Assembly: GCA_964445695.1 (NCBI GenBank)
Contig: CAYULF010000007.1
Coordinates: forward strand, 23,638-87,637
Source of the DNA: an uncultured Hyphomicrobiales bacterium
GTDB lineage: Bacteria; Bacteroidota; Ignavibacteria; Kapaibacteriales; UBA7675
DNA: 64,000 bases
Direction: 5' to 3'
This document shows, piece after piece, positions 6,342-57,178 of the stretch. The translations under genes were made by a program, and so were the position numbers. The notes under the pieces were generated by a model. It was not told where the DNA came from. It made no database searches and saw only the letters and a list, made by a program, of their open reading frames with translations. Numbering within the stretch: position 1 is the first letter of the stretch; each line of letters starts with the position of its first letter.

Positions 6342-6408
6342 GGCAACGTTTCCACGGTTAGAATCAACCGGGGCACATGCCCCGGTTGCTCCAATGTACA
6401 ACATACAA

Positions 6409-16768: not shown

Positions 16769-16876
16769 AGCGTGAATACCGTATTTCCGTATAAAGTTGC
16801 CGCAGCTCAGGGGAAAGTGCGGATAATGATCCCGGCTTCCTGCCAACGAGAAGAAAGATTCGTAATTTAGAAGCTT

Positions 16877-26386: not shown

Positions 26387-28705
26387 TTGGACAGTATGAC
26401 CGCCTCCTCTTGCAAGTTTGTTAAGCGGCGCAGGTGCGCCGAATTTCCGCGTTTGTTCAGAACGTATTTCCCTTTTGTTTGCCTGATTCTTTTGTTTGTC
26501 ACCGCGTCTCGCGTTGCAGCGCAGGTGCGCCTCGATGAGTGGATAACGTATTCGTCGATGGTGGACGTGCGCGCCGCGGATACCGACGCCGACGGCCTGA
26601 TCTGGTGCGGAACCTCCGGCGGCGTTTTCAGCTACGACGCACAGAACGAAGAATACGGAGAATACCGCAACATCGACGCGCTCAGCGAACTTAACATCAC
26701 AGCGCTGAAAGTCGATCCGGTTGAGAACTTCGTCTACGCCGGCAGTGTAAATGGATTCGTCGACATCTGGGACGGCGAACAGTGGATTAACATTCGCGAC
26801 ATCAACGACAACTCGGACGACTTCCCTTCCGTCACGGTCAACGACTTTTTGTTTACACCCGAAGTTGTGATCGTGGCGACGGACTTCGGCATGGTATTGT
26901 TCGACCGCGCGACACGGACTTTTCCCTCGACGATTACAAACTTTGCCGGCCAGCGCGAAATCTCGGTGCGGCAGATTCTGATTGTCGACAACGTGATCTG
27001 GGGCGCGACGTCCGTCGGCGTCATTCGCGCCGAGCTGACGCCGCAGTTTTTTGCCTTCCCGTCCAATCCCGCCAACTGGGAACTGTTTGTGGTAGGTTTT
27101 GACGACCCGCTCGTCACGGACGTAACGGTGTTGAACGGCGTCATTCACGTCTCAAACGCCAATCGCATCCTGCGCTTTGAGGACAGTACGTTTGTTGAAG
27201 TCAAGGAGATTGAGCTGGAAGTCAACAGCATGACCGTCATCAACGGCCAGCTGTTTGCCCTGACGCCTTTTGACATTCGCAACATTGAAGGCGGCGTGTA
27301 CTACGGCAACAACGACCTGGCGCGCGCTTTTACGGCGGTGGATACCTTGCGTCGCAACGGCGTCGACGAACTGCACATATTAACGAGCACAATCGGCGCA
27401 TTCACGCTGGACGCGCAGGCGCAGGCCAATCCGGCCGTGGCGCCCAACACTCCCGCGGGCAATCGCTTCCGCGACCTGACGGTGGACGAAAGCGGCGTGT
27501 TGTGGTGCGCCAGCGCACATCCGGCCGGCTCGGGCGTGTATCGTCTGATCGACGGCGCCTGGGAGAACTTTACGCGCACGACGCGCGAGGAAATCGAGGG
27601 CAACGACATCTACCGCATTCAGGCGATGAACGACGGATCGGTCTGGGCCGGTTCCTGGGGCAACGGCGCATATCGCTTTGGTCCGCAGGCCCCGCCGGAG
27701 ATAGATCTGTTCGACGAGCAAAACTCGCCGCTGCAAGGCTTCGACAGCAACAATCCCAGCTTTGTGCTGCTGGGCGATATTAAACGCGACGAATTCCGCG
27801 GCTACACCTGGCTGCTCAACAAAGACGGCGACCGCCTGGTCTCCTGGTCGGAAACGGCCGGTTTTGAGACGTTTAACATCAACCGCGAGATCGACATGCT
27901 CTTTCTGTCGATCGACGCTTCCGGCACCAAGTGGATCGGCGGCGACGCGGACCGCGGCCTGTGGTACTTCAACGAGCGCTTTGACCGCGCGGCGAGTTCG
28001 GACGACGTCTTCGGCACGCTTAACACAAGCAACTCGCCGCTGCAGGAAAACTCTCAGACGACGGTGGAAGTCGACCTGAGCGATCAGGTCTGGGTCGGCA
28101 GCGCGCGCAATCTCTACGTCATCGCCAATCCCTTTGCCGTGCTGACGGGCGACCGAATCTTCCTGCGTGCGATCACTGACCTCGCCGGACAGTTTGTCAA
28201 CGACATCATGGTGGACCCGGTCAACAACAAGTGGGTGGCCACGAACAACGGCGTCTGGGTCATCAACGACGATGGCACGGAGGTCCTGGCGCAGATCACG
28301 ACGCGCAACTCCCCGCTGGTTAGCAACGAGGTTTTGTCGCTGGCCAACGATCCCAACAGCGGCCGGGTGTACATGGGCACGGACGACGGCCTTTCCTGCG
28401 TGCAGACGCTGGCTGTGCGCGCCAATCCCGACTTCAGCGATCTGCGCTGTTATCCGCAGCCTTACATCCCCACCGAGGACGACGAGCTGGTGATCGACGG
28501 CCTGGCGGAGCAAAGCACGGTCAAGGTGAGCACGGTTGACGGTATTCTGGTGCGTTCGCTGAGCGCTTTGAACTCGCGCACGGTTATCTGGGACGGTCTG
28601 GACGAACGCGGACAGGAGGCTCCGAGCGGCGTGTATATCATTTCGAGCTTCTCGGAGACGCTGTCTGAGGCGGGCCAGACAAAGGCGGTATTGATCCGTC
28701 GCTAG
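26387..28705 (+). CDS. Two-component-regulator-propeller (Reg_prop) double beta-propeller protein with T9SS C-terminal domain; PorZ-like candidate
   Basis: 772 aa. Many Reg_prop-like blades (W.G...G). C-terminal CYPQPY...GVYIISSF...AVLIRR tail. Architecture and size match PorZ of the T9SS attachment complex (established knowledge). Confidence 0.6.
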   Translation: MDSMTASSCKFVKRRRCAEFPRLFRTYFPFVCLILLFVTASRVAAQVRLDEWITYSSMVDVRAADTDADGLIWCGTSGGVFSYDAQNEEYGEYRNIDALSELNITALKVDPVENFVYAGSVNGFVDIWDGEQWINIRDINDNSDDFPSVTVNDFLFTPEVVIVATDFGMVLFDRATRTFPSTITNFAGQREISVRQILIVDNVIWGATSVGVIRAELTPQFFAFPSNPANWELFVVGFDDPLVTDVTVLNGVIHVSNANRILRFEDSTFVEVKEIELEVNSMTVINGQLFALTPFDIRNIEGGVYYGNNDLARAFTAVDTLRRNGVDELHILTSTIGAFTLDAQAQANPAVAPNTPAGNRFRDLTVDESGVLWCASAHPAGSGVYRLIDGAWENFTRTTREEIEGNDIYRIQAMNDGSVWAGSWGNGAYRFGPQAPPEIDLFDEQNSPLQGFDSNNPSFVLLGDIKRDEFRGYTWLLNKDGDRLVSWSETAGFETFNINREIDMLFLSIDASGTKWIGGDADRGLWYFNERFDRAASSDDVFGTLNTSNSPLQENSQTTVEVDLSDQVWVGSARNLYVIANPFAVLTGDRIFLRAITDLAGQFVNDIMVDPVNNKWVATNNGVWVINDDGTEVLAQITTRNSPLVSNEVLSLANDPNSGRVYMGTDDGLSCVQTLAVRANPDFSDLRCYPQPYIPTEDDELVIDGLAEQSTVKVSTVDGILVRSLSALNSRTVIWDGLDERGQEAPSGVYIISSFSETLSEAGQTKAVLIRR

Positions 28706-28909: not shown

Positions 28910-29812
28910 GGACACCTCGCTTGCCAACCCGATTGGTACTCACCGGACTTCACACTTCACTTGATTGCAGCGCCGCGTGCGGCTCGCTTGTTGAGCGCTT
29001 CGCCTGCGGACAGGCTTGCTTGTTGCTTGTTAGTTGTTGCATTCGAGATTGACAGTGTTCCTGATTGTATCCGCGTGTCCAAGCAAATGTGAATATTCCC
29101 TTTCACGATTGAATATCCAATTGCAATTGCAAGGTTCAAATTCCGGCGTTGGATCAACAACATCTTCGTGAGCCGATGATCACCACTGTGTAACTCATCC
29201 TTGTTAACTCACCCACGGGCAATACGCTCGCTATGTTTTACTGCGAACTTGTCCCTGAGGTTATCGAGTGTCTGATTTGAGCGCTGGATACATACAAGCT
29301 GACATCCCCCCTCCAATTCAGCAAACCAGATGCAACGTTATTCACAACCTGCAACAGCTGCTCAGTGTTAATACCGCGTCAGAAAGCCGATCAGAACGAG
29401 TTAAAAACTGACCGGTTAAATACGTGGATCATGAGAGTTGCAGCAGCCGGGTGTTGCTCATCTCGGAGTCCCGACCTTCATGAATGTTCTTACCCCTGGA
29501 CATACCAGACTGTCTTAAGTTTTAATGCGCTCAATTGATAGTTCAGCAGAGGGTTCACTCTGCCTTTCATCCGGCTTGCCCCGAAACTCCGACCTATAAA
29601 TTAAGCCTTGTTACTTGTTTAACCGAACTCGTATCGCTATCCACTGGCTGAAATCCATATCCGAATCTTACCGATAAATTACGACATGTTTTATCACACT
29701 ATACACCATTGACCAAGCACTTGAATCGCACCATTTCCACCTGCCTCAATTTGATGATTTTTTGTAGCTTGTTATTCCACTTCTTCTTTTACCAACCAAT
29801 CTGTTGAGAACT

Positions 29813-31654
29813 ATGATCAACTTTCAAGATCCTGAAGAATCAGGACAAAACTCATCGCCAGAATCCGGATCCGGAACACTTACCAGGTACAATGTCAAGA
29901 CATGGAATACCGAGGCGGCAGACTTCCGGTTTCCGGAAGTAGCCGGCGATGATGCCTATTTCGACGCGGATTCCAAACGTCCCGAGCGCGGCATCTGTTT
30001 TTCGGGCGGCGGCACCGTGAGCATCGCCTTGATTGCAGGTTACCTGAATGCCCTCGAAGAACTTGGCTTGATTCCGGAAATCGGATACATCTCCGGCGTA
30101 TCCGGCGGCACCTGGGGCACGGCGGCGTATATGTACAATCCGCAAAATGATCCAAACAGTTTGCTGGGTAGTCACTATGCGAACCCCGCAGAGATTCCCG
30201 CATCTGTCTTGGAAACCACGGCCGATGGAACGTTGGCGCATGCGACCTGCAATTGCCCGATTGTTACCGAGATACTGGCCTATGAAAGTCTCCATTTAAA
30301 CAAAACATGGTTCCTCTCGGTCCCTCAACGTCAGATCTACACAATGGCAATCGGCGCGATGTTCCTGCGGCCATTTGGAGTAGATTCGCCGGTATTTGAC
30401 GCCGACAATCCGCAAATAAAATGGCGAAAGTTCTTTACTACCACAGAGCAGCAGGCAAAGAAAATCGCCGGGCGCAACAAAATGGGAGTCGAGGCTTTCA
30501 TGACGATGAATACCGACCGACCGTATTACATCATGAATACAACGCTGCTGGCAAAACCACAAAAGAAAGGTTCGCTCACGAATGTTTATCCATTCGAGTT
30601 CACGCCGCTCTATGCCGGCCGTATCTCCGCCGAGTTAACGGATGTGGTCGAAAGCGGCCAAAAGATCGGCGGCGCTTTTGTGGAACCTTTTGGTTTTAAC
30701 TCCGAAGCAGATAGCAACACCGATAGTGAGGGATTTGTTAACGCCTCTAATTTGTATCGCTTTGAACTGCAGCAACCGGTCGGAACCAGTGGATCTGCAC
30801 TGGGCAAAGAGGCCCAGTCGGGTAGTGCTCGCATACTCGACGTCTTTTTTCCGCACTTCAACTATTGGAATCCGACGGATTCCAGGCTCGATTCCAAAGG
30901 CAATCTGGTGACAAAAGGCTATGACTTCGGTGATGGCGGCATTATCGAAAATTCCGGAGTAACTCCGCTGCTTGCACGACAGGTTAAGTACATTGCCGTT
31001 TTCCTGAGTGAAATGTCTTTTTATCCTCCCATTAACGGCGGCGACTTCCATATCGATACATCAGAATTCGGATGGAAACAGAAGGTTTTCGGCTACAATC
31101 AGATTGCCCTTCTCTTCGGCGGACAACTGATCGATGCCGATGCAATGGATCCAAAGAACCAGGATCACGGAGATACGGAAAACTTTGTCAATGTCATTTG
31201 GATGAAGGACACAGTCAATCGTCAGGTCTTCGACAATACGATTCAAAACAGCGACGAACTCGGCGAATCGACGGCGACCACGATGCTTGACGAAGTGATT
31301 GCCCGGCTTAAACAAGTCGACGACGGACCGACAAGCGTCGACCTGATTCTGGATGTAATCGACAATCCCCTCTTTGGCATCAAGGCCTATTCCAATGTCC
31401 AGATAAAACTGACGATTATCGGTTCTTCGACAAACTGGACCGACAATCTGACCGGAGATGTCAAAACGGCGTTTGACAATAGTACACATGGTCTTGGCGG
31501 CTTTCCGAACGTTCAGGTATTTCACCAGAACAAGGGAAAACTGATTGAGCTGAATGCAGCCCAGGCCAATCTGCTTGGCAATCTGGCGTACTGGAATGTC
31601 AAGCAACAAGCAGAGGTCTATCAGAATCTGCTTACAGGCAATCCATTCAAATAG
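29813..31654 (+). CDS. Patatin-like phospholipase family protein (about 613 aa). ORF opens at 29804; Met 29813 used.
   Basis: Oxyanion-hole motif FSGGGTVSIA, GxSxG nucleophile motif GVSGG, catalytic Asp motif FGDGGII (DGG). Large C-terminal extension of unknown function. Lower GC than flanks. Confidence 0.8.
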   Translation: MINFQDPEESGQNSSPESGSGTLTRYNVKTWNTEAADFRFPEVAGDDAYFDADSKRPERGICFSGGGTVSIALIAGYLNALEELGLIPEIGYISGVSGGTWGTAAYMYNPQNDPNSLLGSHYANPAEIPASVLETTADGTLAHATCNCPIVTEILAYESLHLNKTWFLSVPQRQIYTMAIGAMFLRPFGVDSPVFDADNPQIKWRKFFTTTEQQAKKIAGRNKMGVEAFMTMNTDRPYYIMNTTLLAKPQKKGSLTNVYPFEFTPLYAGRISAELTDVVESGQKIGGAFVEPFGFNSEADSNTDSEGFVNASNLYRFELQQPVGTSGSALGKEAQSGSARILDVFFPHFNYWNPTDSRLDSKGNLVTKGYDFGDGGIIENSGVTPLLARQVKYIAVFLSEMSFYPPINGGDFHIDTSEFGWKQKVFGYNQIALLFGGQLIDADAMDPKNQDHGDTENFVNVIWMKDTVNRQVFDNTIQNSDELGESTATTMLDEVIARLKQVDDGPTSVDLILDVIDNPLFGIKAYSNVQIKLTIIGSSTNWTDNLTGDVKTAFDNSTHGLGGFPNVQVFHQNKGKLIELNAAQANLLGNLAYWNVKQQAEVYQNLLTGNPFK

Positions 31655-32599: not shown

Positions 32600-33598
32600 A
32601 TGCGCACAGCCGTCTACAGCACCCACAAATTCGAACGCGACTACCTGATCCGCGCCAACGACAACAAACACGATCTGCTGTTTCTTGAAACACGCCTGAC
32701 CGAATCGTCAACTGTACTGGCGCAGGGATGCGGCGCGGTTAGTTTGTTTGCCGGTGACGACGCCAATGGCGACGTTCTGGAGCAATTGCACGCCCTCGGA
32801 GTTCGATATCTGGCACTGCGCTCGGCAGGTTTTAACCACGTGGACATCGGCCGGGCGCAGGATTTGGGCATTACCGTCGCACGCGTGCCTGCCTACTCAC
32901 CTTACGCCGTGGCCGAACACACCGTGGCGCTGATGCTGGCATTAAACCGCAAGTTAATCCGCGCCCACAACCGTGTCATGGAGTTAAACTTCTCGCTCGA
33001 TGGCCTGGTGGGTTTTGATATGAACGGCAAAACAGTTGGAATTGTCGGTACGGGAAAAATAGGTGAAGTCGTCGCCAAAATCATGCACGGTTTTGGATGT
33101 CGACTGCTCGCATTTGACCTGGAGGCAAATCAACTACTGGTGGAAAATTACGGCGTACAATTCGTCGACATGCAAAAATTGTGCGCTGAGTCGGATATCA
33201 TCACGCTGCACGTCCCGCTCTCGGAGGCGACGCGTTATATTATCGGTGAAAGTGCCATTGCGCAGATGAAACCAGGCGTGATGTTAATCAATACAAGCCG
33301 CGGCGGCCTTGTGCATACCAAAGCCGTCATAAACGCACTCAAGTCGCGGCGCATCGGCTCCTTCGGCATGGACGTGTATGAAGAAGAAGAAGGCTTGTTT
33401 TTTGAGGATCACTCGGACGACATCCTGCAGGACGACACCATTGCGCGACTCATGACTTTCAAAAATGTGTTGATCACCAGCCATCAGGCATTCCTGACAA
33501 ATACGGCCTTAACCAACATCGCGGATACGACTGTTTTTAATCTTGAGTGTTTTGACAAAAACATTTCAAGCGGGAATGAAATTACGTTTAAACAATAA
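32600..33598 (+). CDS. ldhA: D-lactate dehydrogenase (NAD-dependent 2-hydroxyacid dehydrogenase)
   Basis: Collinear strong similarity to E. coli LdhA by eye (MK.AVYST..., GKTVGIVGTGKIG, SRGGLV...MDVYEEE..LFFED). 332 aa. Confidence 0.9.
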   Translation: MRTAVYSTHKFERDYLIRANDNKHDLLFLETRLTESSTVLAQGCGAVSLFAGDDANGDVLEQLHALGVRYLALRSAGFNHVDIGRAQDLGITVARVPAYSPYAVAEHTVALMLALNRKLIRAHNRVMELNFSLDGLVGFDMNGKTVGIVGTGKIGEVVAKIMHGFGCRLLAFDLEANQLLVENYGVQFVDMQKLCAESDIITLHVPLSEATRYIIGESAIAQMKPGVMLINTSRGGLVHTKAVINALKSRRIGSFGMDVYEEEEGLFFEDHSDDILQDDTIARLMTFKNVLITSHQAFLTNTALTNIADTTVFNLECFDKNISSGNEITFKQ

Positions 33599-33792
33599 CA
33601 TTCCAGCGCCTCGATTCAACAACTCGCCGAATAACACCACTCCGCTCCCCATTCCTCAGGCTTGTCGGTGTTTCCGCGCAGTTTGCGGCAGGACAGCCGG
33701 AACGCAGTGCAGACAATGGATGTCGGCATTTGTAGTGACGAATTTTCGACACCTACTGCCTGTAATCACAGGCAAATAAATTTAGGCTCGAC

Positions 33793-33848
33793 AATTATTT
33801 TACTTGTCAGGCTGACATCGATACACTATATTCACCCTCGAATTTCAG
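33793..33848 (+). promoter_or_regulatory. Conserved upstream element (copy 1) about 580 bp upstream of Cys-rich paralog A
   Basis: CAATTATTTTACTTGtCaggctgacatcgatACACTATATTCACCcTCGA is shared (uppercase) with 37308..37363 upstream of paralog B. Confidence 0.4.
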
Positions 33849-34376
33849 AATCCCGCTTTGAGAACTGTTCAACGTCAATTAACAGGAGGTTGATCTACCA
33901 GCTACCACTTTACACGGATATTCACGCCGACCACCAGTAGTTCACGTCTGGGTCGAGCCCCCCTCGATTCGTGATCGCCAACTCTTGCGAGTACCATTAC
34001 AGCCATGCAGCCCGATTACAGCGCCGTTTGATCCGGTGTACTGCCACTATGTTCTATAGAACCGCGGTCAGACACAGCACGCGCCTGTTTCATCGGGAAT
34101 CACATGAAATAGCCTGCGAACCATGGTCCGGTGCACTTGTGCAACGGACGCGACAGCACTTTGTCTGAAGAACGGAAACAACAAGCCGGGAACAACTCGG
34201 CTATTGGTCCGTCCTCAGGCTGTGCCGTGGTTCGAACAACTGTGTCTCAGTACCATCATTCATGCCCGCGACGCGATGCGTCGTTAAAGCAATTCATCAT
34301 TTAACATATCAGTTTGCTGTTTAACAGCAGACCAGGGATTCTTTAATCTCTGTTTTACCAGAACTTTGGAGTCAGT

Positions 34377-37154
34377 ATGAACTTCTCAGATTTTGTTAAC
34401 AACCATTATGATATTCACAGAGCCGCACGGACTCGATTATTGTTTCCGCTGGCATTTGTCCTGATGTTAACACCACTTCTATTCGGCAACTTGTATGCAA
34501 GCGCCGACGACGGCGACTGCTGCGAAAACATCGAGTTTCGGTACGAAAACTCGGATCTGGGCGACTGCTGCTTCGACATCTACATTGCCTTCGACAATGA
34601 GTTCGATTGCAATGTCGATAAAGCGCGCATCACTATCCAGGGAGAAGCCGTAATGATGACGGTGGACAATGCCGACTGGACGCCTGAGATAAACGGCAAT
34701 GAAGTCACCTGGACCGGCGTACCCAACGCCGGTGAAGAAGTATTCCTTGGCACCCTGTGCATTGACGGCCCCACGGCTTGTTACACGGCCGTCTTTGCTT
34801 ACTGCGACGCCGACAGAATGGAGTGGATCGAATGCAAAGATGATATTAAACTCTATTGCAGCATCAGCGATGCTTCACTGTGCGGCACAAAATTCCTCGA
34901 CGCCAACTGCAACGGCATTCGCGACGAAGGCGAACCCGGCATCCCGGATTGGACTATTAAGATATACAACCAGGAGAACGGTACGCTGCTCTCAACCACG
35001 ACGGATGAAAACGGCAACTACAAGTTCTCGGCACTTGACCTGGCTCCCTGGTTTGTCTACGAAGTGCAAATGGACGGATGGGCCCAGACCGCGCCGACAG
35101 CGGGTCGCTACTTTGTTGAATTGAGCGAAGGAGAGATAATCGAAAATCTCGATTTCGGCAACATTCCGACCTGCACGGCCGAGGAGCGCACGGTTGCGAC
35201 ATACCTGGCAGGCGAAAAGGACGACTTTGCCCCAGGCGCTGACGTGCCGCCCGCATCGCTCAGTCCCGAGCTGGCCGAGTTCCTTAAAGGACGCACACTG
35301 GCCGGTTTTGACGACAGCAATAACAACCGCTTTTTTGCACACAGTTTTACCGACTTCGGTATGGACAATTGTTGCCTGGTGGCCGCTTGTTTAACAATCC
35401 ACATGAAAACGAACAGTTCGAGCCTGAGCCACAACGACGGCATCGGCTTTGTTCAGGACGGCGAGGTGATTTACTACAACAGTCTGTCCAACCTCCTCGG
35501 CGGAACCAACTGGCAGAACCAGCCTGCAACTACGCTTAAACTCGATCTGGGCGATCTGCTTGAACACCGCGGAACCAGCATCCTCCCCTCACTGCACGAC
35601 GGCACACTCGATTTCTACATTCAGGACGACACGCAGATCGACTGGGTAGAACTGCGCGTGGAACACTGCTGTGAGCCGGATTGCTGTGAATACCTGAGTC
35701 CTCGCTACGACAATGCCGGCGCCGAAGGTCCTTGCTGCTTTCAGTTTTTTGTCGACGTGGCCGACGGCTGGCCCTGCAATTACGAGCAGGTACGCATGAC
35801 CGTGCTGACCGATGAAGATGTTACAATTACATACAGCGGCGACGGCAGTCACACGTACACGATTAACGGCAAGCAGATTACCGTCGAACACACACTTGGT
35901 GAAGGTGGAAACAATCTGGGTATTTACTGTATCGACGGCACCAGCCAGAGTTTCAACATTATGTTTGAGTACTTCGACGCCGAAACTCAGACCTGGGTAA
36001 GCTGCGGCGAATATCTGGAAGTCTTCTGTTTAATCGAGAGCGGCTCGCTCTGCGGTACAAAATTCGAAGACACCGATTGTGACGGTGTGCGTGATCCGGG
36101 CGAACCCGGTATTGCCGACTGGGAGATTGTGATTGTCAACCGCACGACCGGTGAAACGATGACGACCACGACGGACGGCAACGGCGACTACAAATTCAGC
36201 GATCTGGAATATGCAACCTGGATTGTGTATGAAACACAGCAAACGGGTTGGGCGCAGACCTTCCCGGCTTCGGGTCGCTACGTCGTTGAAGTCTCTTCCA
36301 ACACGGCGGTTGAAAACCTCGACTTCGGCAATGTGCCTATCTGCGCCGATGTAATGGAAACGAGCGAACTCGCCGGTGAAATGGATGATTTCGACACTGC
36401 TACTGTCGATAATCCGCCGGCCAATCCCAGCGACGAGTTGCGCGACTTCCTGGCCGGACGTTCGCCGATCGTTGGTTTTGACAACTCAAACAACGACCGC
36501 CACTTTGCGCATACCTTTACGGATGTGTTAACCGAATTGCGTGAGGCCGGTTGCTGTATTGTCGGCGCACAACTTGACATTCGCGTTCGCACAAACAGCT
36601 CAGGGTTAAGTTGGAACGACGGCATCGTGTTTGTGCAGGACGGCGTGGCCATTTGGGGTTCGCGCATCGGGACTCTGGCAGGTGTCAACTGGGTAAGCCA
36701 GCCGGGAACGATCATTTCGATCGATCTGGGCAATCTTCCCGGCGGCAACGCCACCAGTATCCTGCCCATGCTGCTGGACGGCACGCTCGACTTCTACATT
36801 CAGGACGACACCAGCGTCGACTGGGCCGAGTTGACAGTCCAGTATTGCTGTGAAGAACCCGGCCAGACTGTTCCGGTCAAAGAAGACGGTGAAACGAGCG
36901 CGTTCCTGCTGAAACCGAATCCGGCCGCCAGTACGATCTCGCTTGATTTCAACGTCGCCGACGCGGGCGTCTGGAACTTCGATGTGGTTAACAATCGCGG
37001 CGAAGTAGTTTATTCGCATGGCGCAGTGAACTTCAGCGCCGGCGAGCAGTCGCTGAACTTCGATGTACGTTCGCTGGTTAACGGCGCGTACTTCCTGCGC
37101 ATTCGCACGGCCGACGGCAGTGTTCAGTCGCTGCCGTTCTCGGTGGTTCGATGA
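34377..37154 (+). CDS. Cysteine-rich modular secreted protein with two internal repeats (Cys-rich module + SdrD-B-like domain + CC-bounded module) and T9SS C-terminal domain; paralog A
   Basis: 925 aa. Signal peptide. Vicinal-Cys motifs DCCEN, DCCFD, DNCCLVAACL, HCCEPDCCEY, GPCCFQFF, AGCCIVGAQ, QYCCEE. Two copies of LCGTKF.D..C.G.RD.GEPGI.DW.I...N...G....TTTD.NG.YKF (SdrD B-like). KPNPAASTISL...GAYFLRI...FSVVR C-terminal tail. Confidence 0.8.
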   Translation: MNFSDFVNNHYDIHRAARTRLLFPLAFVLMLTPLLFGNLYASADDGDCCENIEFRYENSDLGDCCFDIYIAFDNEFDCNVDKARITIQGEAVMMTVDNADWTPEINGNEVTWTGVPNAGEEVFLGTLCIDGPTACYTAVFAYCDADRMEWIECKDDIKLYCSISDASLCGTKFLDANCNGIRDEGEPGIPDWTIKIYNQENGTLLSTTTDENGNYKFSALDLAPWFVYEVQMDGWAQTAPTAGRYFVELSEGEIIENLDFGNIPTCTAEERTVATYLAGEKDDFAPGADVPPASLSPELAEFLKGRTLAGFDDSNNNRFFAHSFTDFGMDNCCLVAACLTIHMKTNSSSLSHNDGIGFVQDGEVIYYNSLSNLLGGTNWQNQPATTLKLDLGDLLEHRGTSILPSLHDGTLDFYIQDDTQIDWVELRVEHCCEPDCCEYLSPRYDNAGAEGPCCFQFFVDVADGWPCNYEQVRMTVLTDEDVTITYSGDGSHTYTINGKQITVEHTLGEGGNNLGIYCIDGTSQSFNIMFEYFDAETQTWVSCGEYLEVFCLIESGSLCGTKFEDTDCDGVRDPGEPGIADWEIVIVNRTTGETMTTTTDGNGDYKFSDLEYATWIVYETQQTGWAQTFPASGRYVVEVSSNTAVENLDFGNVPICADVMETSELAGEMDDFDTATVDNPPANPSDELRDFLAGRSPIVGFDNSNNDRHFAHTFTDVLTELREAGCCIVGAQLDIRVRTNSSGLSWNDGIVFVQDGVAIWGSRIGTLAGVNWVSQPGTIISIDLGNLPGGNATSILPMLLDGTLDFYIQDDTSVDWAELTVQYCCEEPGQTVPVKEDGETSAFLLKPNPAASTISLDFNVADAGVWNFDVVNNRGEVVYSHGAVNFSAGEQSLNFDVRSLVNGAYFLRIRTADGSVQSLPFSVVR

Positions 37155-37199
37155 CGCGGTATTGAGCTGAATGCTCAATTCTGCTGGAGGTGTTAACAG

Positions 37200-37250
37200 C
37201 ATGCCCCGACCGAAGAATGATCCTTCGGATCGGGGCATGTCATTTCAGGA
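37200..37250 (+). terminator. Long imperfect hairpin (about 16 bp with one bulge) downstream of paralog A; weak U-tail
   Basis: catgccccgaccgaag-aatga-tccttcggatcggggcatg followed by tcatttc. Confidence 0.45.
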
Positions 37251-37307
37251 CCGGTCAACAAGCTGCCACCTTCCGCTATGTGCAGGCTTTTGCCGGTTTC
37301 CCGGAGA

Positions 37308-37363
37308 AATATTTACCACTGCCAATTATTTTACTTGCCGGTATGAACTCATTCCACTATATT
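37308..37363 (+). promoter_or_regulatory. Conserved upstream element (copy 2) about 600 bp upstream of Cys-rich paralog B
   Basis: See copy 1; shared blocks CAATTATTTTACTTG and CACTATATTCACC.TCGA. Confidence 0.4.
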
Positions 37364-37914
37364 CACCATCGACTTACTTGTACCCCACCTTACAATCCAT
37401 TTCAAACAGTACAATTGTATTACTGCAGGAGGACTGCTTCCCGCACAGCGGGATTCTCGGCATCTTTTTAAGCCATCCATTCGCTCACAGTACGATGTTG
37501 ATTCATCGTCTCCGGATCGCTTTACAACGCGGATTTTCTTGTAGTTGCCCCAGAGTCTGTTCTACCGGTTCTGATTGACTTGCTGCGTATCAGCATACCC
37601 CAGTTCTACCATAGTCAATCATCGCCAGACTTCATACAACAGGTTAATGTTAACGCGTCCCGGCGGCAATTCCGTCGGGTCACACCTGCCTACGCGTCAA
37701 TTTCTCGACGGCCTCACGGCGCCTCCTTTGGATGCCCGGAGCCGGCGGACGCGTTCTGCATTGAAGTTTGACACTATTGACCTGCATGTAAGCTCTACAG
37801 CCGGCGATGCACTGCATCGTTTGTTTAATCACTTTTTTACACACTGAAGCCTGCTGCCATTCAGCAGGCCGGGGATACCTCTATCCCCGAACTCAATGAC
37901 AAACAGGAGTTTGT

Positions 37915-40689
37915 ATGCAGAGATCAGATTGTTTATACACTTTTTTTAACAGTCGCCGCTCAGGACCGACGAGTTGGCCGTTCCTGACAGCGCTTGTGCT
38001 GCTGTTCTCACCCGTTTTTTTTACAGCTTTACAGGCCGCTCCCGATGACGGCGACTGCTGTGAGAGCATAACCTTGCGCTACGTTAACTCGGAGATCGGC
38101 GATTGCTGTTTTGACCTGTACATTGCATTTGACGAAGACTTTGATTGCAACGTCGATAAAGCGCGGATTACCATCCAGGGCGATCCCGTTACGCTGACTG
38201 TTGAAAACTCAGAATGGCAGCCCGTAATCAGCGGGAATGAGGCGACCTTCACCGGCGTGCCCACTGCAGGAGACGAAGTGTACCTGGGAACCGCTTGCAT
38301 CACCGGAGCAGAAGCCTGCTACTCGCTCACATTTGAGTACTGTGATGCCGACAGCCAGCAATGGGTCGTATGCAAAGACTCGTTTAAACTTTACTGCAGT
38401 ATTGCAGATGCTTCTTTGTGCGGCACAAAGTACGAAGACCGCAACTGCAACGGCATCCGCGACGAAGGTGAACCGGGAATTCCGGACTGGACGATTGAAA
38501 TTCACAACCTTGAAAACAATCAGACACTTTCGACGACAACCGACGCGGACGGCAATTACAAGTTCGAAGATCTCGACCTGGCGCCTTGGTATGTCTACGA
38601 AGAGCAAATGGACGGATGGGCCCAGACCGCGCCTGTCCACGGTCGATATTTTGTTGAACTGACGGAAGGTCAGACAATCGAAAATCTCGATTTCGGCAAC
38701 ATCAGCGTTTGCCCGGCGGATGACCGGACTGTGTTAACATTTCTGGCGGGCGAAAAAGACAACTTCGATCCCGACGCCGACACTCCAGCCGCATCGCTCA
38801 GTCCGAGTTTTGCCGAATACCTGTCGGGGCGCGCCGTGACCGGATTTGACGATTCGGACATCGACCATTTCTTTGCACACAGTTTTACGGATTTTGGAAT
38901 GGACAACTGCTGCCTTGTTGCGGCCTGCCTGACAATTCATATGCGCACAAACAACTCCAATCTGAGCCGCAATGACGGCATTGGCTTCCTGCAGGACGGA
39001 GTTGGCCTGTATTACAATACCATTTCCAACCTGCTCGGAGGAATCACCTGGCAGAATCAACCGGGAACAACACTTAAACTCGACCTGGGCAATCTGCTGA
39101 CGAACAACGGTACAAGCATTCTACCATCCCTGCGCGACGGAACACTGGACTTTTTTGTCCAGGATGACACGCAAGTCGACTGGGTTGAATTGACCGTGGA
39201 GTATTGTTGTCAATCGGATTGCTGTGAACACCTGACGCCGAGCTATACCAACGTCGGCGATGAAGGCCCCTGCTGCTTTGAGTTTAATGTCTCCGTGGCG
39301 GAAGACCTGGGCTGTGAGTTCGATGCCGTGCGTATGTCCGTGCTGTCCGAAGAAGCGGTGACCATAACTTACAACGGAGACGGCAGCCACGATTACACAA
39401 TCGACCCCAACCAGATTACCGTCAATCAGACACTGGAAGAAGGTGAAAACGGGCTCGGCATTTACTGTATTGAAGGGCTCTCGACCGTCTACCATATCGC
39501 CTTTGAGTACTTCGACGTTGAAACCCAGACCTGGATAAGTTGCGGCGAATACCTGCGTGTCTATTGTTTAATAGAGAGCGGATCGATTTGCGGCAACAAA
39601 TTCGAGGACACGGACTGCGACGGCTTGCGCGACATCGGTGAACCAGGAATTGAAAACTGGGAGATTGTGATTGTCGATCCGGTCTCGGGTACGGTAGAAA
39701 CGACGACGACCGACAGCAATGGCGACTACAAGTTCGAAGACCTGGAATACGCAACCTGGATCGTGTATGAAACACAACAGTCGGGTTGGGTCCAAACATC
39801 ACCGGCTGCCGGACGATACGTTGTCGTTGTTTCATCAAATTCAGCAGTTGAAAACCTGGACTTCGGCAATTCGCCCATTTGTGAAGACCCGCTTGAAACC
39901 AGCGTTCTGGTGGGAGAAATGGACGACTTCAATCCGGATCCGGATGTGCCCGCCGCATCGCCCAGTGACGAACTTGTCGAATTTCTGGCGGGACGTTCGC
40001 CAATCGTAGGTTTTGACAATGGAACCATTAACCGTCATTTTGCTCATTCCTTTACCGACCTCCTTGAAGAACTGCATCTGGGCGGCTGTTGCATTGTCGG
40101 CGCACAGCTCAGACTGCGCGTACGCACCAACAACTCGTTCTTCAGCTGGAACGACGCCATTTACTTTGTGCAGGACGGGCAGGTCATCTGGAGCTCCAGC
40201 ATCGGCGTTCTGACCGGCGTCAGGTGGACCAACCAGCCGGGAACGATCATCACGATCGATCTGGGCAACCTGCCCGGCGGCAACGCAACCAGCATTATGC
40301 CTATGTTAATCGATGGTTCACTGGACTTCTACCTACAGGATGACACAAGTGTCGACTGGGTCGAGTTGGTGGTTCAGTACTGCTGCGGCGATCACGAACA
40401 GACTGTTCCGGTCAAAGAAGATGGTGAAACGAGCGCGTTCCTGCTGAAGCCGAATCCGGCCGCCAATACGATCTCGCTTGATTTCAACGTCGCCGACGCA
40501 GGCGTCTGGAACTTCGATGTGGTTAACAACCGCGGCGAAGTAGTTTATTCGCATGGCGCAGTGAACTTCAGCGCCGGCGAACAATCGCTGAACTTCGATG
40601 TACGTTCGCTGGTTAACGGCGCGTACTTCCTGCGCATTCGCACGGCCGACGGCAGTGTTCAGTCGCTGCCGTTCTCGGTGGTTCGATGA
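37915..40689 (+). CDS. Cysteine-rich modular T9SS-sorted protein, paralog B (same architecture as paralog A; about 70% identical in the body, about 98% nt identity over the last about 290 bp)
   Basis: 924 aa. Same CC motifs and two SdrD-B-like domains. C-terminal 95 aa essentially identical to paralog A. Confidence 0.8.
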   Translation: MQRSDCLYTFFNSRRSGPTSWPFLTALVLLFSPVFFTALQAAPDDGDCCESITLRYVNSEIGDCCFDLYIAFDEDFDCNVDKARITIQGDPVTLTVENSEWQPVISGNEATFTGVPTAGDEVYLGTACITGAEACYSLTFEYCDADSQQWVVCKDSFKLYCSIADASLCGTKYEDRNCNGIRDEGEPGIPDWTIEIHNLENNQTLSTTTDADGNYKFEDLDLAPWYVYEEQMDGWAQTAPVHGRYFVELTEGQTIENLDFGNISVCPADDRTVLTFLAGEKDNFDPDADTPAASLSPSFAEYLSGRAVTGFDDSDIDHFFAHSFTDFGMDNCCLVAACLTIHMRTNNSNLSRNDGIGFLQDGVGLYYNTISNLLGGITWQNQPGTTLKLDLGNLLTNNGTSILPSLRDGTLDFFVQDDTQVDWVELTVEYCCQSDCCEHLTPSYTNVGDEGPCCFEFNVSVAEDLGCEFDAVRMSVLSEEAVTITYNGDGSHDYTIDPNQITVNQTLEEGENGLGIYCIEGLSTVYHIAFEYFDVETQTWISCGEYLRVYCLIESGSICGNKFEDTDCDGLRDIGEPGIENWEIVIVDPVSGTVETTTTDSNGDYKFEDLEYATWIVYETQQSGWVQTSPAAGRYVVVVSSNSAVENLDFGNSPICEDPLETSVLVGEMDDFNPDPDVPAASPSDELVEFLAGRSPIVGFDNGTINRHFAHSFTDLLEELHLGGCCIVGAQLRLRVRTNNSFFSWNDAIYFVQDGQVIWSSSIGVLTGVRWTNQPGTIITIDLGNLPGGNATSIMPMLIDGSLDFYLQDDTSVDWVELVVQYCCGDHEQTVPVKEDGETSAFLLKPNPAANTISLDFNVADAGVWNFDVVNNRGEVVYSHGAVNFSAGEQSLNFDVRSLVNGAYFLRIRTADGSVQSLPFSVVR

Positions 40690-40736
40690 CTTCTGCCCTG
40701 AGTTAACAACTCACAGCGCAGATTGATGTTCAAATG

Positions 40737-40780
40737 CGCACCGCTTCGGTTATTACCGCCGGAGCGGTGCGTTGTGTTTT
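40737..40780 (+). terminator. Rho-independent terminator after paralog B
   Basis: Stem cgcaccgcuucgg/ccggagcggugcg (one G-U) extendable by cgg/ccg, loop uuauua, followed by UUGUGUUUU. Confidence 0.7.
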
Positions 40781-40894
40781 ACGACTGCACTCATTGAATA
40801 TTCACTTCTCACCCTTTTACAAACAAGAAAATCAAGCCGCGCACAGCAGGAGCAATGCACTCAAGCCTCAGAAATCAGCCTCAGAAATTCATGT

Positions 40895-41971
40895 TCAATC
40901 GCTCTCTTCCCTGACGTGATCAATACCGCGCGCCACAATATCGACCATCTCCTCGCGCTCCTCGGCGTCGGGCGGCGCAATTTCCTCCGCCTCATCTGAA
41001 GCCGGCAGGCATTGCAGTTTAATGAATATGGGAAAGTGATCAGACCCGAAGTGTTCAAGCCGGCGCAAGTCCGCAACCACAAAGTCCGAAGTGTGAAACA
41101 CGTGGTCGAGCGGCCAGCGCAGCCACCAGCGCCGTGCGTTGAATGTGTTGAACGCGCCGCGGCCCTTGCGCGGATCGAGCAGCCCGCTGATCTTTTGAAA
41201 AAGATTGTTTGAATGCGACCAGGCCACGTCGTTGAGATCTCCGGCGACAACTGTGGCTTCGCCCCGCGCGCGAATGCGATCGGCACAGATTAACAGTTCG
41301 GCGTCGCGAGGAGCGGAACTGTCGGCCTCGCCCGGCGCCGGCGGCTCCGGGTGTAAACAATAGAGCCTGAATTTGCGTCCACTCTGCAATTTAACATGAC
41401 AATGAATCGAGGGGATATCCTTTTTAAGCAGGTATTCCACGCGAGGTTCAATCAACTCCAGGCGTGAATACAGCGCCATGCCGTAGAGATTGTCGCGCAG
41501 ATCGGCAACATACCACTTAAACATTTTCCGCAGCTCGGTCAGTTGTTTATCCCACCACTCATCCGGTTCGAGCAAAAGGAGCATGTCCGGCTGCTCGCGC
41601 TTAACAATCTCCAACAGACCGTCCGTATTGCGATTGCTCATCAGGACGTTGGCAACCAGAATGGACAGTGTATCTGCATTCCTGTTGTTCGCGGAGGCCG
41701 ACTGCGCTTCCAACGCCGCCAGGCGCGAATAGGGAAACAAGGTAAATACCTGATACAGCGCCGCCGCAACGGCCGTTAACAAAACCACAACATTGACAAG
41801 GAAGTCCGACGGCCCGCAACTGACAAACAACACGGTGCAGGTAAGCAAAAACAGCAGAAGCAGATATCGCGGAAAATCAAAAGCGCGAATCCACCACTCG
41901 TCGCGGCGAACAAGCGGCATGACGTTTGCAATTACTGCCAGCAACAACAGAATCGTCGTGAAGATGTTCAT
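40895..41971 (-). CDS. Endonuclease/exonuclease/phosphatase (EEP) family protein with N-terminal multi-TM region. ORF track extends it antisense through fbaB to 42985; trimmed to Met 41971.
   Basis: MNIFTTILLLLAVIANV... four hydrophobic helices, then EEP-like C-terminal domain ending ...GSDHFPIFIKL (catalytic SDH motif). Confidence 0.7.
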   Translation of the reverse strand: MNIFTTILLLLAVIANVMPLVRRDEWWIRAFDFPRYLLLLFLLTCTVLFVSCGPSDFLVNVVVLLTAVAAALYQVFTLFPYSRLAALEAQSASANNRNADTLSILVANVLMSNRNTDGLLEIVKREQPDMLLLLEPDEWWDKQLTELRKMFKWYVADLRDNLYGMALYSRLELIEPRVEYLLKKDIPSIHCHVKLQSGRKFRLYCLHPEPPAPGEADSSAPRDAELLICADRIRARGEATVVAGDLNDVAWSHSNNLFQKISGLLDPRKGRGAFNTFNARRWWLRWPLDHVFHTSDFVVADLRRLEHFGSDHFPIFIKLQCLPASDEAEEIAPPDAEEREEMVDIVARGIDHVREESD

Positions 41972-47629: not shown

Positions 47630-48709
47630 TTACTGCTCGCGACCCCAGTCCACCAACAGCGTAAAACGCATCGTATTGGCAAGCGGGTGGTTTTCCTCAA
47701 CCGGGCTGATAAAGCTGAAGTCCAGCTGGAACAGCTCAAAACGCACGCCCGCGCCAAAAGTCAGGTATTGACGATCACCAATGCGCGAAGGCTCTGTAAA
47801 ATAGCCGGCACGCAGAGCAAAGACCTGCTCATACCAGTATTCCGCTCCGAGCGAAAGCTCCACGCCGCCGGTTTCCCAGGCAGTGATGAAGGATTTCGGA
47901 ATACGGTCGGCGCCGAATTCATCACGACGCACGAGCAGTTTGGCAACGTCCACCGCCAGGATCAGGTCGTTGAATTCATCGCGCACAACGTTAAGTCCAA
48001 GACCAAGCCGCAGCATTGTGGGGAGCGGATCCGACTCTTCGTTGTAGGTAACGCTGGGACCGACGTTTTGCAGGTTAAAACCAAGCGACAGTTTGTCGTC
48101 GAGGTCGACGCCGAACAGGTCGAGTTTTTCAGGCGCCCAGAGGATACCGAGGTCAAAGCCGACGGAGATACCGGTACCGGATCCCGTGCCCTGCGCATTG
48201 GCGCCTTCGGCCAGATTGGACTGTATGTAGCGGAACTGCGTTCCGAAACCAAAGTCGTTGCCGAGTTGGGTTGCGTAGGTAAGCCCGAGAGAGAACTCGT
48301 TGGAACGGAAGGTTCCGAGGATGCGACCATCGACCGAGGTCCGCGTAAACTGCCCCAGGTTCATGAGGATGAAGTTGGCGGCGACGTATCCTTCCAGCTC
48401 CTCCACGTATTGGCCGTAGGCCGCATAGCTGTAGAAGAGGTCCGCATTAAACTGCGGCAGCCATTTGGAGAAGGACAGTGAGACTTGCCGATCGTACTGA
48501 AAAGCGAGACCGCCCGGGTTCCAGAAAATGGCATTCAAATCGTCGGCGATTCCCGTCCCGGCATCGCCCATGGCGCTCGAACGAGAGTTGGGTGCGATGA
48601 GCAAGAAGGGAACGGCGGCGCCGCCGGCTTGTGCCAATGCTTCTTTTGCACCGAATCCCAGCATGAGCATCACCACGATGGCTTTTGGGATGAGATTTTT
48701 TCGCAGCAT
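47630..48709 (-). CDS. porV: T9SS outer-membrane shuttle/channel protein PorV (PorV/PorQ family beta-barrel)
   Basis: Signal peptide, then family-typical N-terminal block AVPFLLIAPNSRSSAMGDAGTGIADDLNAIFWNPGGLA. 359 aa. Immediately downstream of the porU candidate, as in the conserved porU-porV operon. Confidence 0.75.
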   Translation of the reverse strand: MLRKNLIPKAIVVMLMLGFGAKEALAQAGGAAVPFLLIAPNSRSSAMGDAGTGIADDLNAIFWNPGGLAFQYDRQVSLSFSKWLPQFNADLFYSYAAYGQYVEELEGYVAANFILMNLGQFTRTSVDGRILGTFRSNEFSLGLTYATQLGNDFGFGTQFRYIQSNLAEGANAQGTGSGTGISVGFDLGILWAPEKLDLFGVDLDDKLSLGFNLQNVGPSVTYNEESDPLPTMLRLGLGLNVVRDEFNDLILAVDVAKLLVRRDEFGADRIPKSFITAWETGGVELSLGAEYWYEQVFALRAGYFTEPSRIGDRQYLTFGAGVRFELFQLDFSFISPVEENHPLANTMRFTLLVDWGREQ

Positions 48710-56213: not shown

Positions 56214-57080
56214 TTATTCTCCCACGTGAGCCGCTTCGACCTGCAGGATGCGATCTGTCCCCTGAAAATCGTGCACCATGACGACAACTTCCAGCTCGTC
56301 CGGGTTCCATTCTTCAGGATCAATTGTCAAAGTCCAGGACTTCTCGATTTCGTCGCCCACCGAAGCAGCCGAAGCCGCAACCGGTTCGCCCCAGGTTCCA
56401 TTAAAGGAGGCGCGCAGAACGTGCTGGTGCACGTAGTCTTGCACGATATTCGGGGTTTTGCGCTCGTCCACCTGAACCTGCACAAAGTTATTCTCGATCA
56501 GGTACACGGCGACATAGTCGTTTTCGCCGCCATCTTCAAAATACGTAATCGTAGCATCGACGCTTACGGTGTTGGTCGCTTCGTTGTAATCGCTCGTGAC
56601 TTCAATCATCATCGGCGCGTCCTGCTCCAGCAGTGAGTTTACCGACGAGCGCCAATCTCCCGGACCGACGACTTTGGAGTTGTTGAAGTCGGAACGATTA
56701 ATCAAAGCGTTCGGTGTACCGGGTGCGTTGACGTCAAACTTGTCGTCGAGTTGATCACCAACCGGCGTACGGAAATCGTAGGTAAAGGGTGAGCTGCCGC
56801 TGCCGGTTTCCGCAAAGAAGCCGGAGTGCACGGAAATGAGAATTACCTGATCCTCGTTGCGTGCTTTGATATCAGCCGCGATTTCAGTTGCCGCCGGACA
56901 GGTACGGCAGCGGAATCCGGTAAATTCCTCCAACAAGATCTTTTGCACGCGATCGCCGACCGGGCCGCCGGAATTGCCGTAGCTGTCCGGATCGCGATAG
57001 GGACCGTTTACTTCATCACAAGCACCCAACAGAAACACGGTTGCGATAAGACCAACGATGAGTTTTTGTTGTTTCAACAT
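56214..57080 (-). CDS. Omp28-related outer-membrane lipoprotein with CxxC motif (ORF open to 57158; lipoprotein signal starts at Met 57080)
   Basis: Lipobox VFLLGAC. ILLEEFTGFRCRTCPAATE motif. About 288 aa. Confidence 0.6.
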   Translation of the reverse strand: MLKQQKLIVGLIATVFLLGACDEVNGPYRDPDSYGNSGGPVGDRVQKILLEEFTGFRCRTCPAATEIAADIKARNEDQVILISVHSGFFAETGSGSSPFTYDFRTPVGDQLDDKFDVNAPGTPNALINRSDFNNSKVVGPGDWRSSVNSLLEQDAPMMIEVTSDYNEATNTVSVDATITYFEDGGENDYVAVYLIENNFVQVQVDERKTPNIVQDYVHQHVLRASFNGTWGEPVAASAASVGDEIEKSWTLTIDPEEWNPDELEVVVMVHDFQGTDRILQVEAAHVGE

Positions 57081-57178
57081 ATCAGCCTGACCATGTGTTA
57101 GATTCGTCGAATTCAAGAGTATTAGCGGCAGCTCAACTTGGAACGCTATGACAAACAAAAATGGGTTGCAGTCAGGAA

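Follow-up and report, generated by a model that had tools for sequence, protein, structure and literature searches.

Paralogous cysteine-rich proteins as candidate T9SS surface cargo: a twice-repeated module architecture and a widespread, unnamed jelly-roll family

Two adjacent plus-strand genes, located in a window of 64,000 nucleotides (the whole stretch of DNA analysed here), encode paralogous proteins which we propose, with moderate confidence, to be independently transcribed, non-enzymatic T9SS surface cargo, namely binding proteins stapled by disulfides and stiffened by calcium. The repeat unit consists of a module A, an SdrD_B domain and a module C and is present twice per protein, resulting in six modules with the following positions.

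34377..37154, plus strand: gene 1, 925 aa; signal peptide, (A, SdrD_B, C) x2, linker and T9SS C-terminal sorting domain (CTD); from the ORF, Pfam and NCBIfam
37915..40689, plus strand: gene 2, 924 aa; paralog of gene 1 with the same architecture; from the ORF
34506..34871, plus strand: module A, copy 1 of gene 1 (aa 44-165)
35673-36041, 38044-38409 and 39211-39579, plus strand: further copies of module A
34872..35165, plus strand: SdrD_B, copy 1 of gene 1 (aa 166-263; PF17210)
36042-36335, 38410-38703 and 39580-39873, plus strand: further copies of SdrD_B
35166..35672, plus strand: module C, copy 1 of gene 1 (aa 264-432)
36336-36854, 38704-39210 and 39874-40389, plus strand: further copies of module C

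Both paralogous reading frames were found exactly where the initial annotation had placed them, and a comparison of the proteins gave 72% identity across the full length. The internal duplication which it had also proposed was borne out, as the first and the second half of each protein share 48% identity (E 5e-118). An ortholog of gene 1 with 95% protein identity was detected in the related MAG Co_bin.359. When gene 1, gene 2 and this ortholog were compared, dN/dS ranged from 0.06 to 0.3 (about 0.1–0.3 per module for gene 2), i.e., all modules are under strong purifying selection, and all 33 cysteines of the mature protein are conserved among the three. A pseudogene or an artefact was ruled out, since the frames are intact, ribosome binding sites are present (GGAG, 7 nt 5′ of the ATG of gene 1; AGGAG, 6 nt 5′ of the ATG of gene 2), dN/dS is well below 1 and the ortholog is conserved. 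The neighboring genes (a 2-hydroxyacid dehydrogenase, an EEP-family nuclease/phosphatase, an aldolase and an ABC transporter) give no functional hint for the pair.

Signals for secretion were found at both ends of the proteins, and components of the T9SS are encoded in the same window.

34377..34505, plus strand: signal peptide of gene 1 (aa 1-43), by reading RAARTR, then LLFPLAFVLMLTPLLFGNL, then YASA/DD
37915-38040, plus strand: equivalent signal peptide of gene 2
36912..37151, plus strand: T9SS type-A CTD of gene 1 (aa 846-925; PF18962, TIGR04183)
40447-40686, plus strand: equivalent CTD of gene 2
26387..28705, plus strand: PorZ (NF052228, 285 bits, cut-off 260)
47630-48709, minus strand: PorV (NF033710, 260 bits, cut-off 250)
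48764-52765, minus strand: PorU sortase (NF033707, 871 bits, cut-off 420)

The predicted signal peptide was recognized by eye: gene 1 starts with an Arg-rich n-region of positive charge, continues with a hydrophobic core of 19 residues and shows an A-S-A site before D44, and reading of the sequence revealed no lipobox. A signal of the Sec type is thus visible, as the initial annotation had assumed. Its second assumption, a Por_Secre_tail domain at the C-terminus, agrees with two models that both score above their curated cut-offs, PF18962 (31.1 bits, GA 27, at the extreme C-terminus) and TIGR04183 (34.1 and 31.7 bits, cut-off 23). The genes of PorU, PorV and PorZ are situated within 10–12 kb of the pair and exceed the equivalog cut-offs. 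Taken together, the CTD scores, the signal peptide and the genes of PorZ, PorV and PorU in the window support, at the sequence level, the assignment of both products as T9SS cargo already made in the initial annotation. The proteins have in common with the type-A CTD cargo of Bacteroidota, which is processed by PorU/PorV/PorZ, an 80-aa CTD matching both models, the Sec signal and the nearby machinery. They differ from it in their passenger, which consists of two unannotated module types and has no enzyme domain, and in that searches returned no close full-length relatives of the pair outside the lineage. No catalytic domain was detected in either protein using Pfam and NCBIfam.

The only module already covered by a named family is SdrD_B. 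The presence of an SdrD_B-like domain twice per protein was confirmed by PF17210, which matches two stretches with 92.4 and 92.5 bits (GA 29.7). By reading, the domain shows an EF-hand-like loop D-x-N-x-N-G-x-x-D-x-x-E (here D-A-N-C-N-G-I-R-D-E-G-E) and the motif TTTDxNGxYKF (here TTTDENGNYKF). The longer motif quoted for it in the initial annotation is exact in the first copy, whereas the second copy reads DTDCDG(V/L)RD.GEPGI. The EF-hand-like calcium loop and TTTDxNGxYKF are shared with the staphylococcal MSCRAMM proteins SdrC/SdrD, and by analogy a role as stalk or spacer, as in surface adhesins, is plausible. In contrast to these proteins, neither an LPXTG motif nor an SD-repeat region nor an N2–N3 ligand-binding region is present, the host is Gram-negative with T9SS anchoring, and the domain contains an extra putative, lineage-specific disulfide (C169-C178, assigned by position). 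Membership in the MSCRAMM family (NF000535, NF012181) was rejected: the proteins reach 40–56 bits compared to cut-offs of 1700 and 2500, only the B-domain region is matched, and the C-terminus is a T9SS CTD.

Module A, which contains 8–10 cysteines including two CC pairs, was modeled as an Ig/cohesin-like beta-sandwich. Outside this lineage it is almost absent. For both module A and module C, searches of Pfam, NCBIfam and PDB gave no sequence match (for module C, E <=1 in Pfam), in line with the earlier impression that both resemble no family that can be named. A profile of module A found nothing in a word-indexed protein database and nothing in JGI metagenome contigs; the sole hint elsewhere is a weak 13-bit match to the N-terminus of protein P0075. 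Cohesin and Ig-like sandwiches (DEv-IgG, MG) show no sequence similarity to module A. Moreover, module A differs from them in its 8–10 cysteines with two CC pairs, and the window reveals no dockerin partner. Membership in the cohesin sequence family was rejected.

Module C (approximately 170 aa) was delimited differently than before. The module does not start at NCC as had been assumed; its first residues lie some 68 positions before that motif, at C266/C656, so that NCC is internal. Homologs were detected with E-values down to 1e-171 for multi-copy proteins, and the family comprises 1,715 cluster representatives (clusters counted at 50% identity) from many phyla, often with 2–4 copies per protein. 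Module C often alternates with SdrD_B, and the anchors vary between GC-dockerin, T9SS CTD and SLH. The closest members consist of SdrD_B and module C repeated three to four times, followed by dockerin-like or T9SS tails. The metagenome proteins of this type (P0061-P0066) share with the pair the homologous module C, the alternation with SdrD_B, the terminal YCC/HCC and varied anchors including a T9SS CTD, but they lack module A and have 3–4 repeats instead of two. Further, the internal CC and the putative SdrD_B disulfide of the pair are both missing in most members of the family.

A restriction to this lineage, for which the initial annotation had proposed a check, does not hold for module C, given 1,715 representatives and SdrD_B-module C repeats in other phyla. 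As for the complete proteins, a full-length search of an index of 5.8 billion proteins returned only the two proteins of the window and SdrD_B-only matches, as the common domain swamps such a search, and no match was found in JGI metagenome contigs. The full (A, SdrD_B, C) x2 architecture is, judging from these sequence searches, confined to the lineage, where it occurs in the window, in a related MAG and on a single ENA contig. The claim of a novel family is valid only for this architecture; A and C are indeed unnamed in Pfam and NCBIfam, but the family of module C is large and widespread.

Structure modeling confidently predicts a CBM-like jelly roll for module C. Its best fold matches are non-catalytic CBMs (Z <=9, TM <=0.44, identity of 8–16% in the structural alignments). 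The beta-jelly-roll fold is shared with CBM8, CBM6, CBM15, CBM22 and the carbohydrate-binding domains of BcsB, and the predicted likeness to CBMs is only generic, on the level of the fold. In contrast to a member of the sequence families CBM8, CBM6, CBM15 or CBM22, module C has no Pfam match (E <=1) and no sequence-profile match in PDB, and its H/ND/QDDT motif is unlike that of any named CBM family among those compared. The polar motifs of the module (H, ND, QDDT.VD; in module C numbering H59, N90-D91 and Q153-D154-D155-T156) are conserved across phyla. If His, Asn-Asp and Asp-Asp-Thr formed an active site, module C would be a new catalytic domain, e.g., a jelly-roll glycoside hydrolase, lyase or peptidase. 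We consider this highly unlikely, since small modules (~170 aa) which are repeated 2–4 times in tandem between spacers and followed by anchors are typically binding modules and not enzymes, the closest folds are those of non-catalytic CBMs, and no enzyme family was matched by sequence. The domains accompanying module C in its family are surface and anchor domains (DUF7901, Laminin_G_3, SdrD_B, FlgD_ig, SLH, GC-dockerin and T9SS CTD), and enzymes beside it are almost absent (a subtilase in 1/57 members).

A binding function is probable, and the proteins would act as adhesins or bind glycans. A wider reading is put forward only tentatively and with rather low confidence. Here, module C would represent a large, unnamed ‘choice-of-anchor’ jelly-roll family of at least 1,700 clusters in Planctomycetota, Verrucomicrobiota, Acidobacteriota, Bacillota, Saccharibacteria and T9SS-bearing lineages, in which His/Asn-Asp/Gln-Asp-Asp-Thr-x-Val-Asp may form a new calcium-dependent ligand site and thus a new CBM family, while module A would be a lineage-restricted, disulfide-knotted Ig-like domain with a binding role of its own. 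Independent of this, module C merits a family definition, having a confident fold and more than 1,700 representatives without coverage in Pfam, NCBIfam or PDB; with it, hypothetical surface proteins could be annotated by the thousands.

The proteins are indeed rich in cysteine (33 or 34 residues in total). Vicinal CC pairs had been estimated at about 14 per protein; the actual count is 8, which is still far above chance (mean 1.2 and maximum 6 in 5,000 shuffles). Since the cysteine count of the mature protein (33) is odd, at least one must be unpaired or bonded between chains. The initial annotation had suggested vicinal disulfides, metal sites or redox sites. According to this idea, the CC pairs would be redox switches or would bind metals (e.g., Cu, Zn), and the proteins would be secreted for redox or metal handling. 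The CC enrichment, the conservation of all cysteines in gene 1, gene 2 and the ortholog, the odd count leaving at least one free thiol, and the extra internal cysteine of module C (column 66, C333/C727), which has no co-varying partner, are in favor of it. However, the terminal cysteines of module C vary independently. They occupy columns 164 (Cys in 89% of the instances) and 165 (65%); counted column-wise over 197 instances of the family, irrespective of the relatedness among them, the internal cysteine co-occurs with the second terminal one (OR 7.6) and is exclusive with an alternative N-terminal cysteine (OR 0.28). Because the second cysteine tracks its internal or N-terminal partner independently, the two terminal cysteines probably bond to different partners, which renders a vicinal disulfide or metal site improbable here and suggests ordinary structural disulfides. 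Further, many members of the module C family have no CC altogether, although the terminal CC is a hallmark of the family, the folds are plain beta-sandwiches, and no metal-binding or thioredoxin-like match was found in Pfam and NCBIfam. A redox or metal function thus appears very improbable.

Gene structure, domain content, the CTD, the nearby T9SS machinery, the folds, the family distribution and purifying selection were accessible directly, and the life of a secreted binding protein may be pictured from them as follows. The Sec signal peptide would direct export across the inner membrane, the cysteines would be oxidized in the periplasm, and the 80-aa type-A CTD would be recognized for passage through the T9SS. 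The PorU/PorV/PorZ complex, whose genes lie nearby, would then probably cut off the CTD and fix the protein to the cell surface. Six beta-sandwich modules in a row, (A, SdrD_B, C) x2, would make up a mature protein devoid of enzymatic function, in which module A forms a disulfide-rich Ig/cohesin-like sandwich, SdrD_B a rigid, presumably calcium-binding spacer, and the jelly roll of module C probably carries the ligand site with the conserved H, ND and QDDT.VD. The CC pairs would be structural, the terminal cysteines of module C each reaching a different partner and tying the domain ends together. The proteins are likely to bind, or adhere to, a polymer or a surface, possibly a glycan. As far as the models can tell, they are ordinary in kind, being modular, non-enzymatic T9SS surface cargo, and every module is predicted to have a common beta-sandwich fold.

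The CTD-coding ends of the genes deviate from the remaining sequence.

36864..37154, common with 40399-40689, plus strand: gene-conversion tract, from nucleotide identity and dS

Gene 1 and gene 2 are 97–100% identical in this tract on the nucleotide level, compared to ~72% elsewhere, and dS is 0.09 compared to >0.8 elsewhere; the ortholog is only ~88% identical here. Judged from these values, the ends have been homogenized by gene conversion, and the locus is a tidy case in which a secretion tag is held identical between diverged paralogs. Diverged paralogs with a homogenized CTD would also suit purely structural coat or spacer proteins without a specific ligand, the pair providing surface variation, as would the bead-like arrangement of beta-sandwiches with rigid SdrD_B spacers; one of the two paralogs is missing at the locus in the related MAG Co_bin.359, which suggests dispensability. 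Nevertheless, this explanation is rather unlikely: purifying selection is strong in all modules (dN/dS 0.06–0.3), and the polar motifs of module C, kept across phyla, argue for a specific site over bulk.

Regarding expression of the proposed binding proteins, each gene has its own set of signals.

33798..33836, plus strand: promoter-like island of gene 1, TTTTACTTG-N17-CACTATATTCACC
37329-37367, plus strand: twin island of gene 2, same motif
34254..34376, plus strand: three-hairpin leader of gene 1, just 5′ of the RBS
37790-37914, plus strand: twin leader of gene 2
37199..37240, plus strand: terminator-like hairpin after gene 1, −31.1 kcal/mol, z −4.95, weak U-tail
40736..40772, plus strand: terminator-like hairpin after gene 2, 15-bp stem followed by U-rich UUGUGUUUU, −30.2 kcal/mol, z −4.6

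A search of the region 33000-41500 in Rfam gave no match, the leader included, and a covariance model of the leader recovered only the three loci from which it had been built. RNAalifold applied to three leader sequences predicted 28 pairs, 7 of them with compensatory changes. The motif TTTTACTTG-N17-CACTATATTCACC occurs exactly twice (0 expected from shuffles), approximately 540–550 nt upstream of each ATG, and the island is also kept in L001. Transcription is accordingly predicted to start near 33845 and 37378, which would give leaders of roughly 530 nt. Both terminator-like hairpins described in the initial annotation are real. With a promoter-like island and a hairpin terminator for each gene, the arrangement fits independent transcription of gene 1 and gene 2, as had been suspected.

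The two plus-strand ORFs claimed in the initial annotation were recovered at exactly the coordinates given there, each with a GGAG-type ribosome-binding site 6–7 nt ahead of its ATG:

34377-37154, plus strand: gene 1, ORF of 925 aa
37915-40689, plus strand: gene 2, ORF of 924 aa

At full length, the two products share 72% identity. Comparing the halves of each protein with each other gave 48% identity (E 5e-118), thus the suspected internal duplication is real. A Sec-type signal peptide, likewise claimed from the start, is evident on reading by eye (Arg-rich n-region, 19-residue hydrophobic core, A-S-A ahead of D44). Both known domain types named at that stage, SdrD_B-like domains and a Por_Secre_tail, exceed their cut-offs in Pfam/NCBIfam: each protein contains two SdrD_B domains (92 bits; gathering score 29.7) and a C-terminal T9SS type-A sorting domain (CTD), detected by PF18962 with 31.1 bits (cut-off 27) and by TIGR04183 with 34.1 and 31.7 bits (cut-off 23).

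The window also encodes components of the T9SS attachment complex, assigned as NCBIfam equivalogs, and further ORFs bearing a CTD:

26387-28705, plus strand: PorZ, 285 bits (cut-off 260)
47630-48709, minus strand: PorV, 260 bits (cut-off 250)
48764-52765, minus strand: PorU sortase, 871 bits (cut-off 420)
5031-6404, minus strand: CTD-bearing ORF
53443-55947, minus strand: CTD-bearing ORF

PorZ, PorV and PorU flank the gene pair at approx. 6–12 kb within the same 64 kb and, together with the additional CTD-bearing ORFs, indicate that the organism possesses CTD-recognising machinery. Combined with the CTD scores, this makes the assignment of both products as predicted T9SS cargo well supported. 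The immediate neighbours encode a 2-hydroxyacid dehydrogenase, an EEP-family nuclease/phosphatase, a DeoC/LacD-type aldolase and an ABC exporter, and none of them provides a hint of function.

We consider it very probable that these are genuine, selected, T9SS-secreted proteins built wholly of beta-sandwich modules and carrying no catalytic domain; for binding as their function, we see an even chance. Most likely, they are surface binding or adhesin proteins which would be stapled by disulfides and stiffened by calcium, with a putative ligand site in module C. As such, the gene pair would be a further example of an already known kind of protein. The most interesting outcome of the analysis is module C itself, which stands for a large domain family, widely distributed and so far without a name. 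Two module types occur besides SdrD_B and the CTD:

aa 44-165 and aa 433-555: module A
aa 264-432 and aa 654-826: module C

That module C, the third module, resembles no nameable family was borne out in Pfam, NCBIfam and PDB sequences, none of which gave a match. The module is nonetheless part of a large family. With a profile built from the four copies in the window, 13 small secreted proteins were retrieved that share the motifs F.H(S/T)F, ND and (F/V)Y(I/V)QDDT.VD, and an exhaustive HMMER search with a profile of 16 sequences returned 1,715 cluster representatives at E ≤ 1e-3 (1,105 at E ≤ 1e-10), many of them with 2–4 copies. The best matches, the metagenome proteins P0061-P0066, consist of three to four SdrD_B-module C units, end in dockerin-like repeats or T9SS/FlgD_ig-type tails, and lack module A. 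Among 57 members scanned, the Pfam partners were DUF7901 (7), Laminin_G_3 (6), SdrD_B (5), FlgD_ig (4), SLH (1) and dockerin (1), and the NCBIfam partners GC-type dockerin (11), T9SS CTD (5) and a PorU-like C-terminus (5); only one of the 57 carries an enzyme domain, a subtilase. Genomes encoding module C belong to Phycisphaerae and other Planctomycetota, Verrucomicrobiota, Acidobacteriota, Bacillota, Saccharibacteria and Brocadiaceae. Given these varied anchors and the broad spread, module C seems to behave like a “choice-of-anchor” extracellular binding module. The family could represent a new carbohydrate-binding module family.

Module A, the first module, also proved to be without a match in Pfam or PDB, as had been proposed, and no relatives were found in the word-indexed database or in JGI metagenome contigs. 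Of the 207 proteins fetched, the only ones to contain it were those of the window and orthologs more than 90% identical to them. The sole candidate distant relative is P0075, a metagenome protein whose aa 50-143 (‘GDGCCWQFTL...ITWT...ACF...’) gave a borderline match (13 bits, E 1e-3 in the set of 207) and immediately precede two copies of module C, without an SdrD_B domain in between. This match suggests that module A is highly divergent, not strictly unique.

Instead of the approx. 14 vicinal CC pairs per protein claimed initially, 8 were counted (33 or 34 Cys in total), which is still far above chance (shuffle mean 1.2, maximum 6; 5,000 shuffles). Every one of the mature protein's 33 cysteines is shared by both paralogs and the gene 1 ortholog. 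The NCC pair had been taken as a boundary of the third module, but sits approx. 68 residues inside the domain, which starts at C266/C656. Across 197 full-length module C instances, which are phylogenetically related to one another, Cys occupies N-terminal columns 1 and 3 in 66% and 45%, internal columns 65 and 66 in 34% and 19%, and terminal columns 164 and 165 in 89% and 65%; these last frequencies mark the terminal CC as a family hallmark. Most often, the pattern is CxC...CC or C...C...CC. In these related instances, the column 65 Cys (C332) tends to be present together with the second terminal Cys (odds ratio 7.6, p ~1e-7) and absent where the alternative N-terminal Cys in column 3 occurs (odds ratio 0.28). 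On the simplest reading, the two terminal cysteines would each bond a different partner, tying the domain termini together; this would speak against a vicinal disulfide or metal/redox site, as suggested earlier for the CC motifs in general, in the terminal pair. No partner co-varies with C333/C727 (column 66, the extra Cys of the NCC/GCC pair) among family members and the Cys total is odd, so at least one Cys is unaccounted for; one thiol or more would be left free or be engaged in a bond to another domain or chain. C135 and C143 of module A are jointly missing from the second copy, which suggests that they pair.

Substitution rates between the paralogs (dS saturated, ~1.2 overall; 1.16; dN/dS 0.09–0.33 per module) and between gene 1 and its ortholog at locus L001 of the related MAG Co_bin.359 (dS 0.46, dN/dS 0.06) point to selection maintaining both genes. 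Co_bin.359 is approx. 89% identical to the window locus in nucleotides, and gene 2 is absent at L001 (7990-9802 versus window 37155-40802), the position being occupied by two unrelated ORFs, 122 and 316 aa long. The duplication predates the split of the two genomes (dS 1.16 versus 0.46), so the gene 2 copy was lost or moved in the L001 lineage. The CTD-coding 3′ ends (36864-37154 versus 40399-40689, approx. 290 nt) are 97–100% identical (dS 0.09), and the genes are approx. 72% identical outside this tract (dS >0.8). Within it, the ortholog differs more from gene 1 than gene 2 does; taken together, this indicates recent gene conversion that homogenised the secretion-tag ends.

Upstream of both genes, the following elements were found:

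33798-33836 and 37329-37367: promoter-like island TTTTACTTG-N17-CACTATATTCACC, exact shared copy
34254-34376, 37790-37914 and L001 5090-5211: three-hairpin leader directly ahead of the ribosome-binding site

The island lies approx. 540–550 nt upstream of each ATG, is expected in 0 copies by chance and is also kept in L001; its position implies unusually long leaders of approx. 530 nt. Although the sequences have diverged, both paralogs and the gene 1 ortholog retain the hairpins, and in these three sequences 7 of 28 pairs are compensatorily changed. Rfam gave no match, and a covariance model found no further copy in the window or seven loci. Judged from the three sequences, the leader may be a gene-specific regulatory element. 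Terminator-like hairpins had been proposed after each gene: both are strong (−31.1 kcal/mol for gene 1, −30.2 kcal/mol for gene 2), but a good U-tract follows only the second. As each gene has its own island, leader and hairpin, the independent expression proposed for them is plausible, transcription itself being deduced from these signals.

A 616-aa ORF (29804-31654, plus strand) has no Pfam/NCBIfam match at E ≤ 1e-5; its GGG and G-V-S-G-G (GxSxG) motifs are reminiscent of serine hydrolases of the patatin or lipase type. Five minus-strand ORFs (5031-6404, 6409-10953, 13085-16882, 53443-55947, 56214-57158) probably encode further proteins destined for secretion or the cell surface. One of these is small, bears a CTD and gives a weak glycosylhydrolase-like match (5031-6404); the others are a subtilase of 1514 aa, a protein of 1265 aa carrying HYDIN/ASH Ig-like repeats, and two paralogs of the Omp28 family, of which one has both a choice-of-anchor D domain and a T9SS CTD.
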